Shown here one piece after another: positions 36,583 through 51,833 of a DNA stretch of 64,000 nucleotides. The stretch comes from an uncultured Candidatus Saccharibacteria bacterium (GTDB taxonomy: Bacteria; Patescibacteriota; Minisyncoccia; Minisyncoccales; MHMH01). The stretch is taken from the NCBI GenBank assembly GCA_964482335.1, contig CAYZXA010000001.1, forward strand, positions 24,983 through 88,982, written 5' to 3'. Every line of letters starts with the position of its first letter. Positions within the stretch are counted from its first letter, which is position 1. The notes beneath the pieces were generated by a model, which was not told where the DNA came from, made no database searches, and worked only from the letters and a program-made list of their open reading frames with translations. The position numbers were made by a program, and so were the translations under genes.

Positions 36583-37050
36583 ATGGCAGTTAAAAAAACT
36601 AAAAAGAAAACAAAACCTAAAGTAAAAGCTAAACCGAAAGCTAAACCGAAAGTTAAAGCTGAACGTTATATTGAAGCAGTTGGCAGGAGAAAAACAGCTG
36701 TGGCCCGAGTTAGGCTACAAGCTCAGGGCAAAAAAGAGTTTTTGGTCAATAACAAATCATTAGAAAGCTATTTTCCTATTTTAGAGTTGCAGCAGATTGC
36801 CAAAGAAGCTTTGGAGAAAACAAACTGCCTTGATAAGTTCAAGGTTTCAGCTAAAGTAAATGGAGGAGGTTTACATGCTCAAGCTCAAGCTTTGAGGCAC
36901 GGCATTGCCAGAGCCTTAGTAAAATTTAATTCTGAATTTCGCATGAGATTAAAAAAAACCGGTTTCTTAACACGCGATTCTCGCATGAGAGAACGTAAGA
37001 AGTTCGGTTTAAAGCGAGCTCGAAGAGCGCCTCAATGGAAAAAGAGATAA
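36583..37050 (+). CDS. rpsI: 30S ribosomal protein S9 with Lys-rich N-terminal extension
   Basis: C-terminal ...RRAPQWKKR; KPK repeats at the N-terminus. Confidence 0.92.
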   Translation: MAVKKTKKKTKPKVKAKPKAKPKVKAERYIEAVGRRKTAVARVRLQAQGKKEFLVNNKSLESYFPILELQQIAKEALEKTNCLDKFKVSAKVNGGGLHAQAQALRHGIARALVKFNSEFRMRLKKTGFLTRDSRMRERKKFGLKRARRAPQWKKR

Positions 37051-37087
37051 TGATACTTAATAAATCTTTGATCTATCTTGACCTCCG

Positions 37088-37771
37088 ATGTTAAAAGAAC
37101 TTATAGACCAACTTTATCTGAACAGGCAAAGAGATAGAGAACAGCATCATTTTTATATTACTGATGCAGGCAAGTGTAACAGGGCTGTTTTTTTTAAGTT
37201 CAAAAATGTACCTAGAAAAAAAATGGATGCTAGGATTTTAAGATTGTTTGACCACGGCGACTACATACAGATGCAGATTTTGAATTCCTTGTTTAGTTTG
37301 GGGATTGTCAGGGCCTCTGAGATCCGTATACCTCCGCAGGAGCTTATTTCTGGCAGAGCAGATGCCATAGTTACCTTGAATAACGAGCTTTATGTGGTTG
37401 ATTTCAAAAGTATGAACAGCATGATTTTTAGGAAACTAGAAGAGCCAAAGGAAGAAAATGTCAACCAGATACAGCTCTATTTGCACTACTTTAAAATCCC
37501 AAAAGGCATACTGCTTTATATGAGCAAAGACACGTCGGAGTTAAAGGATTTTGTGATTCAGTACGATCCAAAGCTTGCGCAATCTCTTATAAAAGGGTTA
37601 GAGACTCTTGATAAAAAAATCAAAGCTAATATCATTCCTGAAAGGTTAACTAATTATCCGCAAAACTGGCAATGCCAGTACTGCCAGTTCAAAGATATTT
37701 GTTCGGCAGCTGGTAAAGGAGAAGTGAAATGGCAAGCGTTTAAAGACAAGATTGAAAAGCTAAGGAAGTAG
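37088..37771 (+). CDS. Cas4-like PD-(D/E)XK nuclease (DUF83/RecB family) with C-terminal Cys cluster, lone copy
   Basis: Four Cys in the pattern C...Cx2Cx5C (CNRAV...CQYCQFKDIC), VVDFKS (D-x-K) and QLYLHYF (QxxxY) motifs. Confidence 0.6.
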   Translation: MLKELIDQLYLNRQRDREQHHFYITDAGKCNRAVFFKFKNVPRKKMDARILRLFDHGDYIQMQILNSLFSLGIVRASEIRIPPQELISGRADAIVTLNNELYVVDFKSMNSMIFRKLEEPKEENVNQIQLYLHYFKIPKGILLYMSKDTSELKDFVIQYDPKLAQSLIKGLETLDKKIKANIIPERLTNYPQNWQCQYCQFKDICSAAGKGEVKWQAFKDKIEKLRK

Positions 37772-38527
37772 GTTCTCTGAAAGGTAGAGGTTATTCTGGC
37801 TTAAAACATATAGTTTTTTTGTTTTTTCTGACCAGAATATTTTAGGACTTTCAAATTCTACCAGGTCAACAATATTGATTCTGTCGCGGTCGTCGATTTC
37901 GGCGACTTTTATTTTATTGCCAACATTGAATATCATGTAGTAATTATTCAGCCAGAAAACCTTGTCAATTTTTTCTGAGAAGCGGGTTATGAAGATTTTT
38001 TCTTCTTCTGTCTGAGACTGAACAGTCCGGCTTTCTATAAGTGAAATCCAGATTTCGTAGTCGTTAAATTCAATCAACTTATTTTTATCAGAAGAAGTAG
38101 CTACCATTTCTATTTCCGAGGTAATATCTAAAACTTCTTTTGTACTAGTGGCCAAGATAATAAAATTTGGATTTTTTGGAATAAGAAGAACATTTTTAGC
38201 TTCTGTCACTTGTCTTTCTTTGACCTCTAAGTTTTTCTGCCATGTATGGTAGCCCTGTTTTTTTATTTCAACTTCATAGGTTTTGGGCACTAGGTTTTCA
38301 ATTAGGGCAGAATTGGTAAAGATTGAAGTTTTAACTTTCGATTTGTTATTAAGCCAGACCTCGGCGTTTCTGGGCAATACCTTAAAATAGAACGCACCGG
38401 TTTGGACAATTTTCTTTGTTTCAAAATCAAAGCGGTAGCCCTGGGAATAAAAAACAACTACTGGCGCTGCCAGAGCGAATATTACTACGCAGATAATAAA
38501 CAAAACGGTCCTTGTTCTCTTTTCCAT
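37760..38527 (-). CDS. PEGA-domain membrane-anchored protein (hypothetical)
   Basis: N-terminal TM; LPRNAEVWLNNK...PKTYEVEIKKQGYHTWQKNLEV resembles a PEGA domain; one of only two minus-strand protein genes in the window. Confidence 0.55.
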   Translation of the reverse strand: MEKRTRTVLFIICVVIFALAAPVVVFYSQGYRFDFETKKIVQTGAFYFKVLPRNAEVWLNNKSKVKTSIFTNSALIENLVPKTYEVEIKKQGYHTWQKNLEVKERQVTEAKNVLLIPKNPNFIILATSTKEVLDITSEIEMVATSSDKNKLIEFNDYEIWISLIESRTVQSQTEEEKIFITRFSEKIDKVFWLNNYYMIFNVGNKIKVAEIDDRDRINIVDLVEFESPKIFWSEKTKKLYVLSQNNLYLSENLLP

Positions 38528-38547
38528 ATCGTTTCTATTTTAACTTA

Positions 38548-38576
38548 TTGACAAATTAAAATCAATTTGCTAAGAT
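38548..38576 (+). promoter_or_regulatory. promoter TTGACA-N17-TAAGAT
   Basis: Perfect -35, 17-nt spacer. Confidence 0.45.
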
Positions 38577-38644
38577 AACCTAGACAAAAAATGTCTTTAG
38601 CCTGATTTAGTTAGTACATAAAAAACAAAAAAGGAGGCGTCAAA

Positions 38645-38872
38645 TTGGCAGAGGTTGAGTTAACAAAAGCAGCTGGAGAGCTCCCAAACGGCTTACTTGC
38701 TCCCTTTATGGAAGGATTGTTAAAAATAGGGCAGTATAATTTTGAACTTATTAAACATTATGCCAATTGCCTGGCAGATATCCTAGAGAGAGCAGGGGTG
38801 AGCGAAGAACAGATAAGCGCCATAGAAGAACAATATCGTAACGAGAAGAAAGAAAAACAAGCAAAAGATTAA
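38645..38872 (+). CDS. hypothetical 75-aa protein (TTG start)
   Basis: SD AAAAAGGAGG with 7-nt spacing. Confidence 0.5.
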   Translation: MAEVELTKAAGELPNGLLAPFMEGLLKIGQYNFELIKHYANCLADILERAGVSEEQISAIEEQYRNEKKEKQAKD

Positions 38873-38885
38873 AGGAGGTGCCAAC

Positions 38886-39410
38886 ATGGCAACAGCTCAA
38901 CCAAAGATTGGTTTGTTTGCTGGAATATTTAACACAGAGGGGAAACTACTGATTAAAAGAAGGCCGAAAGGTATTTCTTTGGCTGGCGAATGGGATCTGC
39001 CCGGTGGTGCAGTTGAGGAAAAAAACAATCAGAATGCGCTTGATGAACGAATCGTTGGTCAAGAACTTGCCAGAGAAGTAAAAGAAGAAGTAGGACTTGC
39101 TATACCTGAATTTCTTCCGATGCCAGCTATGTATCCAACAGTGCTCAGAGGCGGTGGCGATTGGGCTTTTGCGATCCTTGTTGGGGTTGTTGAAGAAAGT
39201 CCGAGCAAAGGAGAAACGAGGTATATTTCTCCTCAAGAGCTTCAAGAACTGGCCGAAGGACCGGAAGGAAATAGGTTGGTTAGCGGTTGGGGAAAGCGCA
39301 TGTGTCGGCTTTGTCTTCGACTTTTTGCATCACGAGATGCTCCCAATCAGGATTACGCAAAACAGGCAGGAGAGATGCTTGCCAAGATTCAGTCGAGTTG
39401 GAGCAATTAG
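38886..39410 (+). CDS. NUDIX hydrolase
   Basis: Nudix box GQELAREVKEEVGL (REUxEExGU); SD AAAGGAGG. Confidence 0.8.
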   Translation: MATAQPKIGLFAGIFNTEGKLLIKRRPKGISLAGEWDLPGGAVEEKNNQNALDERIVGQELAREVKEEVGLAIPEFLPMPAMYPTVLRGGGDWAFAILVGVVEESPSKGETRYISPQELQELAEGPEGNRLVSGWGKRMCRLCLRLFASRDAPNQDYAKQAGEMLAKIQSSWSN

Positions 39411-39415
39411 TTTTT

Positions 39416-39458
39416 AAGGCGTTTCGTCAAGGCAATTTGACGAACGCCTTTTATATTT
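39416..39458 (+). terminator. Rho-independent terminator after the NUDIX gene
   Basis: AAGGCGTTTCGTCAA-ggcaa-TTGACGAACGCCTT followed by TTATATTT. Confidence 0.55.
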
Positions 39459-39487
39459 CAAATGATGGAGGCCGGGCCTCGATCAGG

Positions 39488-39518
39488 TTGATATTTGCCA
39501 AATTAAGGGTTTTAAGAT
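39488..39518 (+). promoter_or_regulatory. promoter-like TTGATA-N17-TTTAAGAT upstream of murA
   Basis: Contains the recurrent TAAGAT hexamer. Confidence 0.35.
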
Positions 39519-39534
39519 AGGATAAAAAGAGCAT

Positions 39535-40803
39535 ATGGCAGAGAAATTTATCATTAATGGCAGTCGGCCTCTTAAGGGTGAAATTGAAGTGAGAGGTGCT
39601 AAGAATGCTGCTTTTCCGATTTTAGCTGCTTCTCTTTTGACTAAAGACGAATGCTTTATTGAGAATCTTCCTTTGATAGAGGATCTCTTTCGCATGATTG
39701 AAATATTAAAAGGTATGGGCTCTAAGATTTCCTGGGTTGGCCAAAGGTCCCTGAAGATCAAAAATTCTCAGATTGACCCTTTAAAAGTCAGAGAGGATTT
39801 GGTTGGTCTTTTACGGGGTTCAGTGCTTTTTTTCGGACCTTTACTCGGCAGATTCGGTAAGGTAAAATTTCCTCAGCCTGGCGGCGATATTATTGGTGCT
39901 CGTCCCATTAATACTCACTTAGACGGTTTCTCGCAAATGGGAGTTAGCGTTACCAAAGATGGAGATAAATATTTATTGGAAGCTCCCAAAAAGAAAGAGA
40001 AAGAAGTTGTTTTAAATGAGTTTAGCGTGACAGCGACCGAGAACTTAATGCTTTTTGCTAGTTTAATTCCTGGCAAGACAGTTATTAAAACAGCTGACCA
40101 GGACTATCAGGTTATAGAGTTGGCTAAGTTTTTGAAGAAAATGGGAGTTAAGATTAAAGGGGCTGGTACTCATAAGATAACCATCGAAGGCTCTAAAAGA
40201 TTAAAGGGAGTTAAGCATCGACTGATTTATGACCCAATTGAAGCAGGTACTTTTATCTTGACAGCAGTAGCTACCAGAGGTAATGTTTTGGTGAAAAATG
40301 TAGAAATCTCCTTTTTAGAGCTTCCTTTAAAAAAACTTAAAGATTTCGGCGTACCTTATCAGATTGTTGGGAAAAAAGGCATTAGAGTTTTGCCTTGGAA
40401 GAGCCTGAAGATTGATAAAATTCAAAGTATGCCTTATCCTGGCATTCCTTCTGATTTACAGTCTGCTTTCGGAGTTTTAGCTACCCAGGCCCAAGGCTCT
40501 ACTTTAATTCATGACCCGCTTTACGAAGGCAGGTTGAAATATCTTGAGGAAATCAATAAAATGGGAGCAGAAATCTATTTTGCTGATCCTCATCGGGCAG
40601 TCATTAACGGTCCGACTCAGCTTTATGGCAGAGAACTTGGTTCTTTTGATTTGAGGGGCGGGGCATCTTTAATCATTGCTGGCTTGATTGCCAAAGGAAA
40701 AACAACTATTAATAATATATATCAGATAGATAGGGGATATGAGAAAATAGAAGAGAGGCTGCAGCAATTAGGAGCTGACATTAAAAGAGTAAAAAATTCT
40801 TAA
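39535..40803 (+). CDS. murA: UDP-N-acetylglucosamine 1-carboxyvinyltransferase
   Basis: EPSP-synthase fold, 422 aa, conserved MurA sequence. Confidence 0.93.
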   Translation: MAEKFIINGSRPLKGEIEVRGAKNAAFPILAASLLTKDECFIENLPLIEDLFRMIEILKGMGSKISWVGQRSLKIKNSQIDPLKVREDLVGLLRGSVLFFGPLLGRFGKVKFPQPGGDIIGARPINTHLDGFSQMGVSVTKDGDKYLLEAPKKKEKEVVLNEFSVTATENLMLFASLIPGKTVIKTADQDYQVIELAKFLKKMGVKIKGAGTHKITIEGSKRLKGVKHRLIYDPIEAGTFILTAVATRGNVLVKNVEISFLELPLKKLKDFGVPYQIVGKKGIRVLPWKSLKIDKIQSMPYPGIPSDLQSAFGVLATQAQGSTLIHDPLYEGRLKYLEEINKMGAEIYFADPHRAVINGPTQLYGRELGSFDLRGGASLIIAGLIAKGKTTINNIYQIDRGYEKIEERLQQLGADIKRVKNS

Positions 40804-48779: not shown

Positions 48780-49065
48780 CAGCGCCGTGGAGGAGTAGTA
48801 CCTCACCAGTCTCATAAATTTTTGTGACCTAAAATGGTAACATTTTATGGAAAAATTCCCGAAATTGCTGGGAACCCGTAAAAATATTTTATGGCAATCA
48901 GCAGCCAAGCTTCGACATTTTGTCGGAGAAGGTTCAGAGACTATAATGGGAACACCCTTTTATTTAAGGGAGATGGGATAGTCCGTTCCATTTGGAAACA
49001 AATGGCTAACACTAAAGAAGCTGGGGGCCCCCGTGCAATTCGGGGCGGCGCAACAAAGATTCTAT
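48780..49065 (+). ncRNA. candidate structured non-coding RNA or long 5' leader (unclassified)
   Basis: Several local hairpins (CGACAtttTGTCG; CCATTTGgaaaCAAATGG; GCCCCGtgcaattCGGGGC) and a GC-rich block atypical of this genome; the only ORF (48891..49094) has no SD and odd composition. Confidence 0.3.
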
Positions 49066-49121: not shown

Positions 49122-49832
49122 ATGGCTAGAATTATAGAAAAAAATAAAGCGCTAAGACTGCGCCAAAAAGGGAAAAGTATAAATGAAATTGCTAGAAGAT
49201 TAAAATTACCAAAAAGCACTGTTAGTGTTTGGTGTCGTGATATTAAACTTACTTCGGAACAGATCGGAAGATTAGCAAAAAGACAAAAATCTGGAAGTTA
49301 TAAAGGAAGAATGAAATTTTTAGAAAGAGTAAGAAAAAAAAGAATGGAAGAGATGATAAGATTGAGAAAGGAAGGAATTCAAGAGATTGGTAAGATAAAA
49401 AAAAGAGATTTATTTGTTGCTGGAATTGCAATGTATTGGAGCGAAGGAGTGACTTCTTCAAATAGCGATGAAGTAAGTTTTTCTAATTCAGACCCCAAAA
49501 TGCTTCTTTTGATGTTGAGATGGTTTAAAGAGATTTGTGGCGTATTAGATAACCAATTTGTTATTCAAATCAGAATCAATAAAATACATAAACAGAGAAT
49601 AAAAGAGATTGAAAATTATTGGTCTAATATAACAAAGATTTCATTAAGCCAATTTACTAAAACGATTTTAATAAAAAGTAAATTGAAGAAGATTTATCCT
49701 AAGACCGACGCTTATTACGGTACTCTAAGAATAAAAATTCGACGCGGTACTCAATTAAGAAGAAAGATTAATGGTTGGATTGAAGGATTGGCTAGGCGGG
49801 GTAGCTCAGTTGGTAGAGCAAAGGACTCATAA
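49122..49832 (+). CDS. HTH-domain protein (hypothetical); the 3' end overlaps tRNA-Met by 38 nt
   Basis: N-terminal helix-turn-helix (KSINEIARRLKLPKSTVSVW); the stop TAA coincides with the tRNA anticodon loop. Confidence 0.4.
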   Translation: MARIIEKNKALRLRQKGKSINEIARRLKLPKSTVSVWCRDIKLTSEQIGRLAKRQKSGSYKGRMKFLERVRKKRMEEMIRLRKEGIQEIGKIKKRDLFVAGIAMYWSEGVTSSNSDEVSFSNSDPKMLLLMLRWFKEICGVLDNQFVIQIRINKIHKQRIKEIENYWSNITKISLSQFTKTILIKSKLKKIYPKTDAYYGTLRIKIRRGTQLRRKINGWIEGLARRGSSVGRAKDS

Positions 49833-50419: not shown

Positions 50420-51136
50420 ATGGAAAAACTGATTACTATACAGAAGAGTGTAATTCCTGCTTGTGATGTGGATACCTTGGGAAAATTGGGACAGGTAGCC
50501 GAGGCTACTTTTGGCCTATCAGGAATTGGTGCCTATAAAGTCGGATTAGAGCTTGCTCTTTCCTTCGGCTTAAAAGAGGTAGTTAAGATAATCAGGGAAC
50601 ATAGTAATTTCCCAGTTATCTATGACCACCAAAAAGCAGCTACTGACATTCCAGCCCTAGGAACAAAATTTGCTAAGGCAGTGAAAGGTGCCGGCGTAGA
50701 CGCTGTAATACTATTTCCCTTTGGAGGTGCTGCGACTGAGCGAGAGTGGATAAAAGTTTGTCGAGAAGAAGGTTTAGTGGTTTTAGTTGGCGGTCATATG
50801 ACCCAGCCGGAGTTTCTTGAGGCGGAAGGTGGCTTTATTGCTACTACAGGGCCAGAAAGAATGTATCAGATTGCTGCTGACAGTGGGGTGACCAATTTTG
50901 TTGTTCCGGGAAATAAGCCGGAATTTGTTCTAAAGTATCGTCAGCTACTAGAAAAAGAGTTGGGAGAGGACAAATTTACCCTCTATGCTCCTGGCTTCAT
51001 TACTCAGGGTGGTAGTATCTCGGAGGCCGGCCAGATGGCTGGAGACAATTGGCATGCAATTATCGGCAGTGCTATTTATAAAGCTGAGAATATGAGAAAA
51101 GCTGCTCAGCAGGTGACATTTCAGATTGTTAGCTAA
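50420..51136 (+). CDS. pyrF: orotidine-5'-phosphate decarboxylase family (PyrF-like; the related HPS/KGPDC branch not excluded)
   Basis: TIM-barrel OMPDC-family motifs (IPACDVDT, DHQKAATDIP, IIGSAIY); immediately upstream of pyrE. Confidence 0.65.
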   Translation: MEKLITIQKSVIPACDVDTLGKLGQVAEATFGLSGIGAYKVGLELALSFGLKEVVKIIREHSNFPVIYDHQKAATDIPALGTKFAKAVKGAGVDAVILFPFGGAATEREWIKVCREEGLVVLVGGHMTQPEFLEAEGGFIATTGPERMYQIAADSGVTNFVVPGNKPEFVLKYRQLLEKELGEDKFTLYAPGFITQGGSISEAGQMAGDNWHAIIGSAIYKAENMRKAAQQVTFQIVS

Positions 51137-51173
51137 TAGCCATGCCACCAAAAATCCAAGGAGGTAAAAAGAA

Positions 51174-51833
51174 ATGGTAACTAGAGAAGGACTAACCAAT
51201 TCGCAAAAACAGGTAGCTAACAGAATTTATGATCGGGAAGCAGTAAAGTTTGGAGCCTTCAAATTAAAACTTCATGAGAAGAATCCTGATGCCCCGCTTT
51301 CTCCCATCTATATTACTCTCCGGAAACCACCTGGCGGACCTTTGACCGATGTGGATGTTGAGATGATCGGGCAAGAACTTTACGCCCAGGTAAAAAAGCA
51401 AAAAGTCCTATTTGATGTAGTAGCTGGTATTCCTCGAGCTGGAGAACCATTTGCTGAAGTGGTCGCTCGATTGTCAAGAAGACCCACGCTCAAACTTAGC
51501 AAGAAGGAAGGAGGAGATAAACGAAAGATTGACTCAATTGTCAGTGGAGAATACCGACCTGGCCAGCTTGTCTTATTGGTTGATGATTTAATCACTCAGG
51601 CTGATACAAAGAAAGAGGCAATCGGGGTTTGTGAGAATGCCGAGTTAACAGTTGCCGGAGTAGTCGTCCTGGTAGATCGGGAACAAGGCGGATCAGAGGA
51701 CTTAGGGAATGCCGGTTACACCTTGCATACTGTTTTTCCTCTTTCAGCTCTTCTTGACTATTATGTTGAGGTTGGCAAGATTGATTCGGTAAAGTGTGAT
51801 GAGGTAATGGAATACATCACAGCTAACAGATAG
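51174..51833 (+). CDS. pyrE: orotate phosphoribosyltransferase
   Basis: Type I PRT motif LLVDDLITQADT; SD AAGGAGG. Confidence 0.8.
   Translation: MVTREGLTNSQKQVANRIYDREAVKFGAFKLKLHEKNPDAPLSPIYITLRKPPGGPLTDVDVEMIGQELYAQVKKQKVLFDVVAGIPRAGEPFAEVVARLSRRPTLKLSKKEGGDKRKIDSIVSGEYRPGQLVLLVDDLITQADTKKEAIGVCENAELTVAGVVVLVDREQGGSEDLGNAGYTLHTVFPLSALLDYYVEVGKIDSVKCDEVMEYITANR

Follow-up and report, generated by a model that had tools for sequence, protein, structure and literature searches.

Cas4-family nucleases that are encoded away from cas genes, known as solo-Cas4, are over-represented in CPR bacteria and have also been described in DPANN archaea (Hudaiberdiev 2017, PMC5704561). Their inheritance was found to be mainly vertical and under purifying selection, no function was assigned to them, and "defence or repair" were both left possible (PMC5704561). 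The gene described here lies in a window of 64 kb, which is the whole stretch of DNA that was analysed, and it fits the published solo-Cas4 description in having no cas genes or CRISPR nearby and a small-genome CPR host. It goes beyond that description, in which the word "ribosomal" has 0 occurrences, in its fixed site behind rpsI, its conservation at the level of ribosomal proteins and its recurrent neighbor, a gene for methylpurine-DNA glycosylase (Mpg). Literature searches turned up no earlier description of a Cas4 that is linked to rpsI or belongs to the CPR core.

The top PDB match of the encoded protein is SSO0001, the Cas4 of Sulfolobus solfataricus (4IC1; sequence profile 5e-8, full length), to which it is about 24% identical. 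SSO0001 is CRISPR-linked and archaeal, whereas the window protein comes from a bacterium and its gene is a solo one, joined to an operon of ribosomal proteins. The strongest profile scores come from phage Cas4-domain/RecB-type exonucleases (PHROG 1990 and 1706, 101 and 93 bits), and 188 phage records match most of the length of the protein, but with an identity of only 24-28%. In contrast to the phage exonucleases, the Cas4-like gene is chromosomal and syntenic across species, with no phage context, recombinase or replication module.

In a first-pass annotation the interval between rpsI and murA was taken for a 2.5-kb accessory insertion, whose Cas4-like nuclease, minus-strand PEGA protein, small ORF and NUDIX hydrolase might together serve as one defence or repair module. 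Every feature of that description is present in the position given for it, but the genes group differently. The four genes appear to form three transcription units that differ in conservation, namely the tail of a ribosomal-protein operon, a convergent minus-strand gene and a promoter-to-terminator cassette. We consider it probable (roughly 0.6) that the interval as a whole is explained by a housekeeping solo-Cas4, a conserved PEGA gene and a cassette in a variable slot, and not by one module.

Conserved gene order between rpsI and murA

The upstream anchor of the conserved synteny is rpsI (ribosomal protein S9; 36583..37050, plus strand), an ORF matching Pfam Ribosomal_S9 and the final ribosomal-protein gene of its run, while the downstream anchor is the murA ORF (39535..40803, plus strand) of the murA-mreB-holB-frr group. 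Close relatives of the Cas4-like protein were found in 126 species-level genomes, and the best 80 of the 126 loci, ranked by similarity to this protein, were taken, the locus set being seeded with two conserved peptides. The order L17-L13-S9-Cas4-like(+)-PEGA protein(-)-[slot]-murA/mreB-holB recurs in the 79 species-level relatives (best of 126), and those that share it are Parcubacteria/Nealsonbacteria-type CPR bacteria, the host itself being a small-genome Nealsonbacteria-type bacterium. S9 stands upstream of the Cas4-like gene in 69 of the 79, and a PEGA homologue follows on the minus strand in 70. The gap between S9 and the Cas4-like gene does not exceed 150 nt in 51 of the 69 loci, and in 20 it is no longer than 20 nt, the S9 stop codon being often abutted or overlapped in relatives. 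On the other side, 51 of 70 loci have the PEGA gene no more than 150 nt downstream, and in 26 the 3' end is overlapped. Where genes have been inserted between S9 and the nuclease (L016, L046, L063, L066, L070), the nuclease keeps with the PEGA gene and not with S9. The Cas4-like gene is not universal at this position, since a more distant relative (L092) has the arrangement S9-PEGA-NUDIX-murA with no Cas4-like gene there.

Median identity to the window in the fetched loci is 64% for the Cas4-like protein, 65% for S9, 66% for L13, 58% for MurA, 50% for the PEGA protein and 38% for HolB, a comparison that is biased in favour of the Cas4-like protein because the loci were ranked by similarity to it and seeded with the two conserved peptides. 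Non-synonymous divergence (pN) between the window and the relative L094 is 0.11 for the Cas4-like gene, 0.18 for S9 and 0.24 for the PEGA gene. About 80 related species share the Cas4-like and PEGA genes, which we count as conserved housekeeping genes; in most of the 79 they keep their position, and they evolve about as slowly as ribosomal proteins, which argues against a single accessory or defence module. Of the supposed accessory insertion, the part from 37088 to 38527 is conserved in most of the 79 species and only 38528-39534, about 1 kb, is variable. The first-pass annotation had itself proposed to compare the rpsI-murA region across relatives and had named a shared gene order as the outcome that would speak against it; such an order is what we find for the Cas4-like and PEGA genes.

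The Cas4-like nuclease

The gene at 37088..37771 on the plus strand codes for a protein of 227 aa, which profiles, motifs, fold and synteny place among solo Cas4-family PD-(D/E)XK nucleases with four Fe-S-type cysteines. It passes the cut-off of Pfam PDDEXK_1 (PF12705; 29.6 bits, cut-off 22), stays just under that of Cas_Cas4/DUF83 (PF01930; 20.1 bits, cut-off 22.7) and does not reach that of TIGR00372 (45.3 bits, cut-off 65), while PADLOC Cas4 models match it down to 2e-12 and the PHROG "Cas4-domain exonuclease" at 1.2e-28. The motifs C30, GRAD92A, D105-F-K107, Q127xxxY131 and C196-x2-C199-x5-C205 are invariant in an alignment of 13 homologues, and the RecB motifs (catalytic D, D/ExK), QxxxY and all four cysteines match in the alignment with SSO0001, which bears out the motifs reported earlier; the four cysteines are predicted to bind an Fe-S cluster. 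Foldseek placed 4IC1 first (E 1.6e-8, TM 0.50-0.60), followed by ACE1, MGME1, lambda exonuclease, RecE and Cas4-Cas1-Cas2 complexes, matches that serve for assignment of the fold only and not for detail, the model being moderate (pLDDT 63, N-terminal 90 residues poor) owing to the shallow alignment of 13 sequences.

Tandem-repeat and direct-repeat scans found no CRISPR-like repeats or arrays in the 64-kb window, and cas1 and cas2 are absent from all inspected neighbourhood gene lists of the window and its relatives, in agreement with the first reading of the sequence. With no array in 64 kb, and with genes for ribosomal proteins, the envelope and housekeeping functions as neighbors here and in relatives, the Cas4-like gene classes as a solo-Cas4. 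A CRISPR-associated Cas4 of an adaptation module was ruled out, because neither cas1/cas2 nor an array adjoins.

We propose that Parcubacteria-type CPR bacteria inherit this gene vertically, as a housekeeping solo-Cas4 at the tail of the rpoA-rplQ-rplM-rpsI operon. A consensus scan of the 37-nt gap after S9 found no promoter- or terminator-like site, and this lack of signals together with the spacing suggests that the gene is probably co-transcribed with rplM-rpsI.

The function of the protein could be indicated by its neighbors. An Mpg gene lies directly 3' of the Cas4-like gene, on the same strand, in 10 of the 79 species (Pur_DNA_glyco matches with E 1.8e-51 and 2.1e-53 in the two copies scanned), the apparent spacing being -8 to +148 nt in nine of them and the ORF start over-extended in the tenth (L059). 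The window itself has no Mpg gene, and no more than about 13% of the species show this adjacency; where it occurs, directly behind the Cas4-like gene, it favours DNA repair over defence. The protein is probably an Fe-S-containing 5'->3' single-strand DNA exo/endonuclease, which would trim DNA ends or flaps in repair and recombination, outside CRISPR adaptation and defence.

Another use of such a nuclease would be nucleotide salvage, that is, degradation of environmental or host DNA for a nucleotide-auxotrophic cell, with the NUDIX and pyrimidine genes belonging to the same economy. CPR bacteria are generally described as lacking de novo nucleotide synthesis, a bulk task in metabolism would go well with the strong, constitutive expression of a ribosomal-protein operon, and processive exonucleases (lambda exonuclease, RecE) are among the fold matches. 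We nevertheless regard salvage as unlikely, since no ComEC-type uptake or nucleotide-transport gene adjoins in the loci inspected and the sole recurrent functional neighbor is a base-excision-repair glycosylase. Characterised Cas4-family enzymes process DNA ends, and to our knowledge bulk DNA degradation is not a described role of this family.

The tight linkage to rpsI, with the nuclease no more than 20 nt away in 20 of 69 loci, and conservation at the ribosomal-protein level could also be attributed to an RNA-acting nuclease tied to the ribosomal-protein operon, engaged in rRNA maturation or in excision of insertions from rRNA or tRNA. An intron-containing tRNA is present in this window, and CPR rRNAs contain introns (PMC9297842). 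However, all structural and sequence neighbors of the Cas4-like protein are DNA nucleases, the Mpg adjacency points to DNA, and upon insertions the nuclease parts from S9 and stays with the PEGA gene. Group I introns, moreover, self-splice, and altogether we find an RNA role very unlikely and prefer the one in DNA repair or recombination.

The minus-strand PEGA protein

The Cas4-like gene is met by a convergent gene at 37760..38527 on the minus strand, with a 12-bp 3' overlap. Its PEGA profile match and synteny mark its product as a probable membrane-anchored PEGA-domain protein of the short form (255 aa), and a promoter-like site, TTGATT-N17-TAAAAT (38537..38565, minus strand, from a consensus scan only), ends 10 nt upstream of its start codon. 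The first-pass annotation was right about the membrane-anchored PEGA type, but what it counted as one of only two minus-strand protein genes is the single convincing one that we found in the window. Similarly to PEGA-domain envelope proteins (PF08308), the protein has an N-terminal hydrophobic membrane helix and, behind it, a beta-sandwich region with matches to PEGA and CarboxypepD_reg over about 60 residues; unlike typical PF08308 members, its family scores at or just under the threshold (20.4 bits for the window protein, cut-off 20.8). All 19 of the 19 family members tested match PEGA weakly (E<=0.05, best 2.3e-5), and some match beta-propeller families. Among the homologues 21 are short (<300 aa) and 41 have at least 400 aa, and in the longer relatives the middle region is propeller-like (weak matches to DPPIV_N, PD40 and Tricorn), a part that is missing from the 255-aa form. 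A sequence-profile search found no PDB relative of the family. We suggest that it is a conserved envelope protein, in which a membrane anchor and a PEGA beta-sandwich are probably followed by what is left of a propeller-like domain at the C-terminus. Synteny connects it with the nuclease by position, and no sign of a functional link was seen.

The variable slot and its cassette

The PEGA gene and murA/mreB diverge from a junction that is a variable slot. It is empty (59-311 nt) in 20 loci and filled (0.45-2.4 kb) in 19, and the occupants seen in the inspected loci include MFS transporters, IS200-like transposases, a TPR protein, small ORFs of Zn-ribbon type and variants of NUDIX; in about 10 of 80 relatives a NUDIX-type ORF separates PEGA from murA. 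In the window this slot carries a putative self-contained operon running from a promoter through the 75-aa ORF and the NUDIX gene to a terminator, elements which had all been reported before and were all found. The 75-aa ORF and the NUDIX gene are the only variable add-ons in the interval. Since NUDIX genes recur in the slot of distant genomes as well (L090, L092), the NUDIX gene could be an ancestral resident, often lost, instead of incoming cargo.

The promoter-like site of the cassette, TTGACA(38548)-N17-TAAGAT with a TG upstream (38548..38576, plus strand, consensus scan), is placed to drive both genes, and L094 has the same element in the same position (TTGACA-N17-TATAAT). The 75-aa ORF (38645..38872, plus strand, TTG start) follows, with a perfect Shine-Dalgarno (SD) site, AAAGGAGG, at 38630-38637 and at canonical spacing. 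In this genome 59 of 75 genes lack an SD site, and the sites of the cassette genes are strong. A word-indexed search found no relatives of the ORF, and 1.84 billion representatives contained one other cluster (P0223, 50% identity, E 6.7e-9), whose 76-aa protein is encoded in the same slot and SD context upstream of a NUDIX-like gene. The co-occurrence with NUDIX genes raised in the first-pass annotation is therefore repeated in the single known homologue. In L094 the small ORF and its promoter are both conserved, and the NUDIX gene that follows them is of a different subtype.

The TTG start, the near absence of homologues and the lack of any Pfam, PHROG or PADLOC family (the only PADLOC match, mad1, is at chance level with E 0.014) would also be expected if the ORF had arisen by chance within the 5' leader of the NUDIX mRNA. 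This is improbable in view of the perfect SD site in a genome where most genes have none, the homologue in the same position and SD context, and a divergence that is lower at non-synonymous (pN 0.35) than at synonymous sites (pS 0.78). By its sequence the 75-aa product is a lineage-restricted small protein, which may act as a fast-evolving partner or regulator, and translation of its ORF is probably coupled to that of the NUDIX gene. The possibility that the ORF is a diverged Zn-ribbon-like N-terminal extension of a long-form NUDIX protein was rejected, as the long forms matched the NUDIX body alone (tblastn, 38400-39500).

The NUDIX gene (38886..39410, plus strand, 174 aa) has an SD site, AAAGGAGGT, at 38871-38879, which overlaps the stop codon of the small ORF. 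Its product passes PF00293 (34.9 bits, cut-off 21.1), has 101 homologues and belongs, as a short form, to a small subfamily of CPR bacteria and archaea in which a C-terminal SGWGKRMxR motif is conserved, many relatives bearing an N-terminal CxH...CxxC extension. Its AF2 model has a pLDDT of 93.8 and matches more than 200 NUDIX structures at E<=1e-3, the nearest being MutT (3GRN), MutT2 (5ZRx), BdRppH (3EES) and NudG (2RRK). With these it shares the NUDIX fold and an intact catalytic helix, REVKEEVGL, the canonical C-terminal half of the Nudix box; it differs from them in an insertion in the N-terminal half of the box (GGAVEEKNNQNALDERIVGQELA), about 8 residues longer than in BdRppH, and in a C-terminal extension of about 50 residues that holds SGWGKRMxR. 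Its scores against NCBIfam equivalogs are far from the cut-offs (TIGR00586 28.6, cut-off 97.9; PRK10546 28.3, cut-off 156; PRK10776 28.0, cut-off 148), so that in sequence it resembles MutT (8-oxo-dGTPase)/NudG enzymes and falls outside their equivalog groups. It is most likely a MutT/MutT2/NudG-like (deoxy)nucleoside-triphosphate pyrophosphohydrolase, predicted to clean the nucleotide pool. In a look for compositional signs of horizontal transfer, the GC of the gene (0.465, z = +2.3) exceeded that of all others in the window but its GC3 was average (0.343), so the excess lies in codon positions 1 and 2, which is consistent with amino-acid composition. A tblastn search of 50,697 phage records found no match to it, and a phage origin is unsupported, though one metagenomic relative adjoins a terminase. 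The cassette is closed by an intrinsic-terminator-like hairpin and U-run (39416..39456, plus strand; hairpin 39416-39446 of 15 pairs with one bulge, -19.8 kcal/mol, z = -4.2), and a similar hairpin follows the NUDIX-like gene of L094.

These data bear on whether the lone Cas4-like nuclease and the NUDIX enzyme act together as a small anti-phage module. The PADLOC Cas4 matches, a weak partial match of the NUDIX protein (N-terminal 67 residues) to the candidate PDC-S07, a NUDIX family member (L093) adjoining SIR2 and terminase genes, and the wording of PMC5704561, in which defence is left possible, are in its favour. However, PADLOC-DB v2 gave no complete defence system for the four proteins and no match for the PEGA protein; with family-level matches only, an anti-phage defence system at this locus was rejected. 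Furthermore, the Cas4-like gene is syntenic with, and about as conserved as, ribosomal-protein genes in most of the 79 species, and the NUDIX gene is missing from about 85% of loci, so the two do not co-vary. They appear to belong to separate transcription units and have a convergent gene between them, and the inspected loci are flanked by housekeeping genes and show no defence island. We consider joint action in defence highly improbable, and of the proposed "defence or repair" it is repair that gains some support, from Mpg in 10 of 79 species and from the MutT-like NUDIX enzyme.

Conclusions

Because the claim of an accessory defence module fails, the locus is unimportant as a defence island. 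Its interest lies in the solo-Cas4, which Koonin's group flagged in CPR bacteria in 2017 and which now has a context, fixed behind rpsI in this clade. This position, the ribosomal-protein-like conservation and the repeated pairing with a glycosylase make a DNA-repair role directly testable. The PEGA|murA slot, with its SD-bearing cargo in genomes otherwise nearly devoid of such sites, is a small, clean system in which to study translation initiation in the Parcubacteria, about half of which have been reported to be without an anti-SD sequence. It is doubtful, though a little less so than the alternatives weighed above, that the rpsI-linked solo-Cas4 is essential, co-expressed with ribosomal proteins and specific to a large Parcubacteria clade and that, separately, small cassettes have the PEGA|murA junction as a dedicated site of entry. 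If so, the solo-Cas4 would cover a core nucleic-acid step that is done elsewhere by canonical enzymes, for instance the resection of flaps, dRP or ends in a reduced repair system or, less likely, an RNA- or ribosome-linked step. The cassettes would then import their own strong SD sites into genomes that otherwise initiate without them, and two translation-initiation classes would be present in one cell.

Results

The S9 (rpsI) stop codon ends at 37050 and the murA start codon begins at 39535; the interval 37051-39534 is all that lies between them, and it holds four ORFs. Profile searches identified three of them as a 227-aa Cas4-like PD-(D/E)XK nuclease (37088-37771, plus strand), a 255-aa protein with a weak PEGA match (37760-38527, minus strand) and a 174-aa NUDIX protein (38886-39410, plus strand), while the fourth is an ORF of 75 aa that starts with TTG (38645-38872, plus strand). 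The nuclease carries C30, GRAD92A, D105-F-K107, Q127xxxY131 and C196x2C199x5C205. A promoter scan placed TTGACA-N17-TAAGAT, with TG in front, at 38548-38576 (plus strand). On the same strand the Shine-Dalgarno (SD) sequence AAAGGAGG lies 7 nt 5' of the TTG, AAAGGAGGT overlaps the stop codon of the small ORF 6 nt 5' of the NUDIX ATG, and a terminator-like hairpin (15 pairs, one bulge) with a U-run behind it closes the cassette at 39416-39456 (-19.8 kcal/mol, z = -4.2). Repeat scans of the whole 64-kb window found no CRISPR-like repeats. The first-pass annotation had described a lone Cas4-type nuclease with QxxxY and four-Cys patterns and no CRISPR array, this promoter, a strong SD before both the TTG-start ORF and the NUDIX gene, and a terminator; all of these features are found where it placed them and its description was therefore accurate. 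The genes of the window are of ribosomal-protein, translation and envelope types, nearly all on one strand, and 14 metagenome contigs carry the identical four-gene block.

The same annotation took these 2.5 kb for an accessory insertion, which the comparison with relatives does not support. Using the nuclease alignment as query against one genome per species (GTDB representatives), we found a relative of the nuclease encoded in 126 species and fetched 80 loci. Searching them with the window proteins (tblastn and blastp) gave a recurring order, L17-L13-S9-Cas4-like nuclease(+)-PEGA(-)-[variable]-MurA and/or MreB-HolB; such recurrence had been named in advance as the outcome that speaks against an insertion. 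Median identities to the window proteins over 79 loci, a comparison that favours the nuclease since the loci were chosen by similarity to it, were 64% for the nuclease (range 58-83), 65% for S9, 66% for L13, 67% for L17, 58% for MurA, 76% for MreB, 38% for HolB and 50% for PEGA. S9 lies upstream of the nuclease in 69 of the 79 loci (no more than 150 nt apart in 51 of the 69, and 20 nt or less in 20), and an opposite-strand PEGA homologue lies downstream in 70 (within 150 nt in 51), overlapping the 3' end of the nuclease gene in 26 of the 70; in the window this overlap is 12 bp. Between the window and L094 (L numbers denote loci of related genomes) the nuclease has a non-synonymous divergence of 0.11, compared with 0.18 in S9 and 0.24 in PEGA. 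Even with a selection that favours the nuclease, the nuclease and PEGA genes are conserved residents of this position and do not make up an insertion. The more distant genome of L092 has the order S9-PEGA-NUDIX-murA, without the nuclease, so the arrangement has its limits. Literature searches for a Cas4 linked to rpsI or belonging to the CPR core turned up no account of the linkage.

Two loci, L034 (5676-7260, minus strand) and L036 (4316-5933, minus strand), have a PF02006 synthetase of the archaeal phosphopantothenate/pantothenate type (1.4e-74) and a GHMP-kinase-family gene between nuclease and PEGA; the pair looks like a fragment of an archaeal-type coenzyme A pathway in a CPR bacterium. 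Many of the synteny loci, L015, L017 and L019-L021 among them, are filed as 'uncultured Candidatus Saccharibacteria bacterium' (binchicken assemblies), which on loci with Parcubacteria-type synteny looks like placeholder taxonomy and not like true Saccharibacteria.

Each of the 19 aligned PEGA homologues gives a weak hit to the PEGA model (2.3e-5 at best), and a few also match beta-propeller families. The family alignment has a conserved N-terminal helix and PEGA region, a variable middle part (some 200 residues) and a C-terminal part of about 100 that is again conserved. The window protein is without the middle part, as are those of 20 other species; this short form is therefore a feature of a clade rather than a pseudogene. 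PEGA is tied to the nuclease by position, and we see no sign of a functional link; the two genes converge and could not be read from one transcript.

Detectable homologues of the nuclease number 1,699, the best 120 of which are at least 71% identical; those named among these 120 are Candidatus Nealsonbacteria or Patescibacteria. Searched with a profile of 13 homologues, the PDB gave a single significant match, SSO0001 (4IC1), the archetypal Cas4, over the full length (5e-8), with catalytic residues and all four cysteines coinciding. The AlphaFold model is of moderate confidence (pLDDT 63; good for core residues 93-227), and its top Foldseek match was again 4IC1 (1.6e-8), followed by the Argonaute-associated Cas4 (ACE1), MGME1, LHK-Exo, lambda exonuclease, RecE and Cas4-Cas1-Cas2 complexes. 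Profiles of phage 'Cas4-domain exonucleases' scored higher (101 bits) than CRISPR Cas4 models, which gave 45 bits and stayed short of the 65 that TIGR00372 requires. The phage proteins are just 24-28% identical to the nuclease. Pfam thresholds place it in PDDEXK_1. Motifs and predicted fold assign the nuclease to the Cas4 family, and its context, away from cas genes, makes it 'solo'.

The variable part lies between PEGA and murA or mreB. The conserved gene that comes next lies 59-311 nt from the PEGA start codon in 20 of 70 loci and 0.45-2.4 kb away in 19; in the remaining 31 neither murA nor mreB was seen inside the fetched flank. In the window this slot spans 38528-39534 and holds promoter, small ORF, NUDIX gene and terminator. 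NUDIX variants occupy it in about 10 of 80 species, plus L090 and L092, and other occupants are MFS transporters, IS200-like Y1 transposases, Zn-ribbon small ORFs and a TPR protein. The transposases, RAYT-like, stand beside PEGA in L010 (6487-7236), L013 (6516-7196) and L074 (5745-6455) and are a possible agent of slot turnover.

Slot genes also differ from core genes in their starts. SD-like sequence is absent in 59 of 75 window genes, and a match of at least 7 nt precedes just four, including the small ORF and the NUDIX gene (SD-bearing starts listed: 29711, 38645, 38886 and 51174). Across relatives an SD-like pentamer lies near 16 of 299 core-gene starts (5%), against a strong AAGGAGGTG site or SD-like pentamer in 15 of 19 slot cargo genes (79%; Fisher p = 5e-14), the latter hand-collected from the window and loci L007-L094. 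The anti-SD motif is reported to be missing in about half of Parcubacteria (Tsurumaki et al. 2022, PMC9297842); the 16S gene lies outside the window. These SD sites may mark either a special translation class or foreign origin of the cargo.

A word-indexed search of 5.8 billion clusters matched the small ORF to itself only, and a HMMER pass over 1.84 billion representatives gave a single further cluster, P0223 (76 aa, 50% identity, E 6.7e-9). Its contig has the same synteny, with a nuclease about 80% identical to that of the window, and reads S9, nuclease, PEGA(-), promoter, 80-aa ORF, 76-aa ORF, 197-aa NUDIX-like protein, terminator. Promoter and SD context are conserved between the two loci, and the NUDIX-like protein is of a different subtype (42-residue match to the window NUDIX; PF00293, 18 bits). 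With pN 0.35 below pS 0.78, the two known copies point to a real gene, very narrow in distribution and fast-evolving. The suggested co-occurrence with NUDIX genes holds in that both copies lie 5' of one (n=2, too few for statistics).

Some 100 members of the NUDIX family are known, from CPR bacteria and a few archaeal bins; they share a nearly invariant C-terminal SGWGKRMxR motif and come in two forms, short (as in the window) and long with an N-terminal CxH...CxxC extension. Family members were seen at the slot position (L090, L092), in a different core context (L091) and beside terminase and SIR2 (L093). The model is confident (pLDDT 93.8), nearest to MutT (M. mazei), MutT2 (M. smegmatis), BdRppH and NudG. 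The protein keeps the catalytic REVKEEVGL and has an insertion of about 8 residues within the Nudix box. All NUDIX equivalog models scored far under their cut-offs. The predicted activity is most likely that of a pool-cleaning (d)NTP pyrophosphohydrolase. Two slot relatives, L007 (7784-8401) and L014 (6541-7161), keep SGWGKRMCR, but the catalytic glutamates are gone from their Nudix box (…RVENDLGI and …KVKNDLGI where the window protein reads REVKEEVGL); they may be inactive or repurposed.

Elsewhere in the window, a terminator-like hairpin with T-run (37888-37917, plus strand) lies within the antisense PEGA coding region, 117 nt past the nuclease stop codon, and could end the long ribosomal-protein transcript. 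The anticodon loop of a tRNA-Met(CAT) (48781-49054, plus strand) is split by a 183-nt group I intron (Rfam RF00028, 91.8 bits at 48803-49005; in its intron mode ARAGORN also finds the split tRNA), and a low-GC gene for a 236-aa HTH protein follows downstream (49122-49832). Adjoining OMP-decarboxylase and phosphoribosyltransferase genes (50420-51833, plus strand) both have raised GC (z = +1.7), the second with a perfect SD. Since it is unusual to find genes of pyrimidine synthesis in CPR bacteria, this pair may have been acquired.

Discussion

The interval is a CPR solo-Cas4 beside a variable slot, which here holds a NUDIX cassette. Solo-Cas4 is over-represented in CPR, with Parcubacteria named, where it shows mainly vertical inheritance and ordinary purifying selection, and its suggested role was 'uncharacterized defense or repair' (Hudaiberdiev et al. 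2017, PMC5704561).

The first-pass annotation likewise proposed a defence or repair module; a defence module is not supported, and repair gains plausibility from a neighbour. In 10 of 79 species there is an extra gene between nuclease and PEGA, on the strand of the nuclease, and all ten encode methylpurine-DNA glycosylase (Mpg, PF02245; two by profile, 1.8e-51 and 2.1e-53, the rest by BLAST): L019 (4347-4946), L021 (5689-6213), L054, L057, L059, L067, L079, L080, L081 and L088. Nine of the ten have an apparent gap of -8 to +148 nt between the two genes, with stop-codon overlap in some; the tenth is L059, where the ORF start is over-extended. Every Mpg within the fetched flanks occupies the position directly behind the nuclease, which argues for a role in DNA repair; the window itself holds no Mpg. 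Such a role is plausible: the nuclease could process what base excision leaves behind, the 5' flap or deoxyribose-phosphate, or, alternatively, act in end resection.
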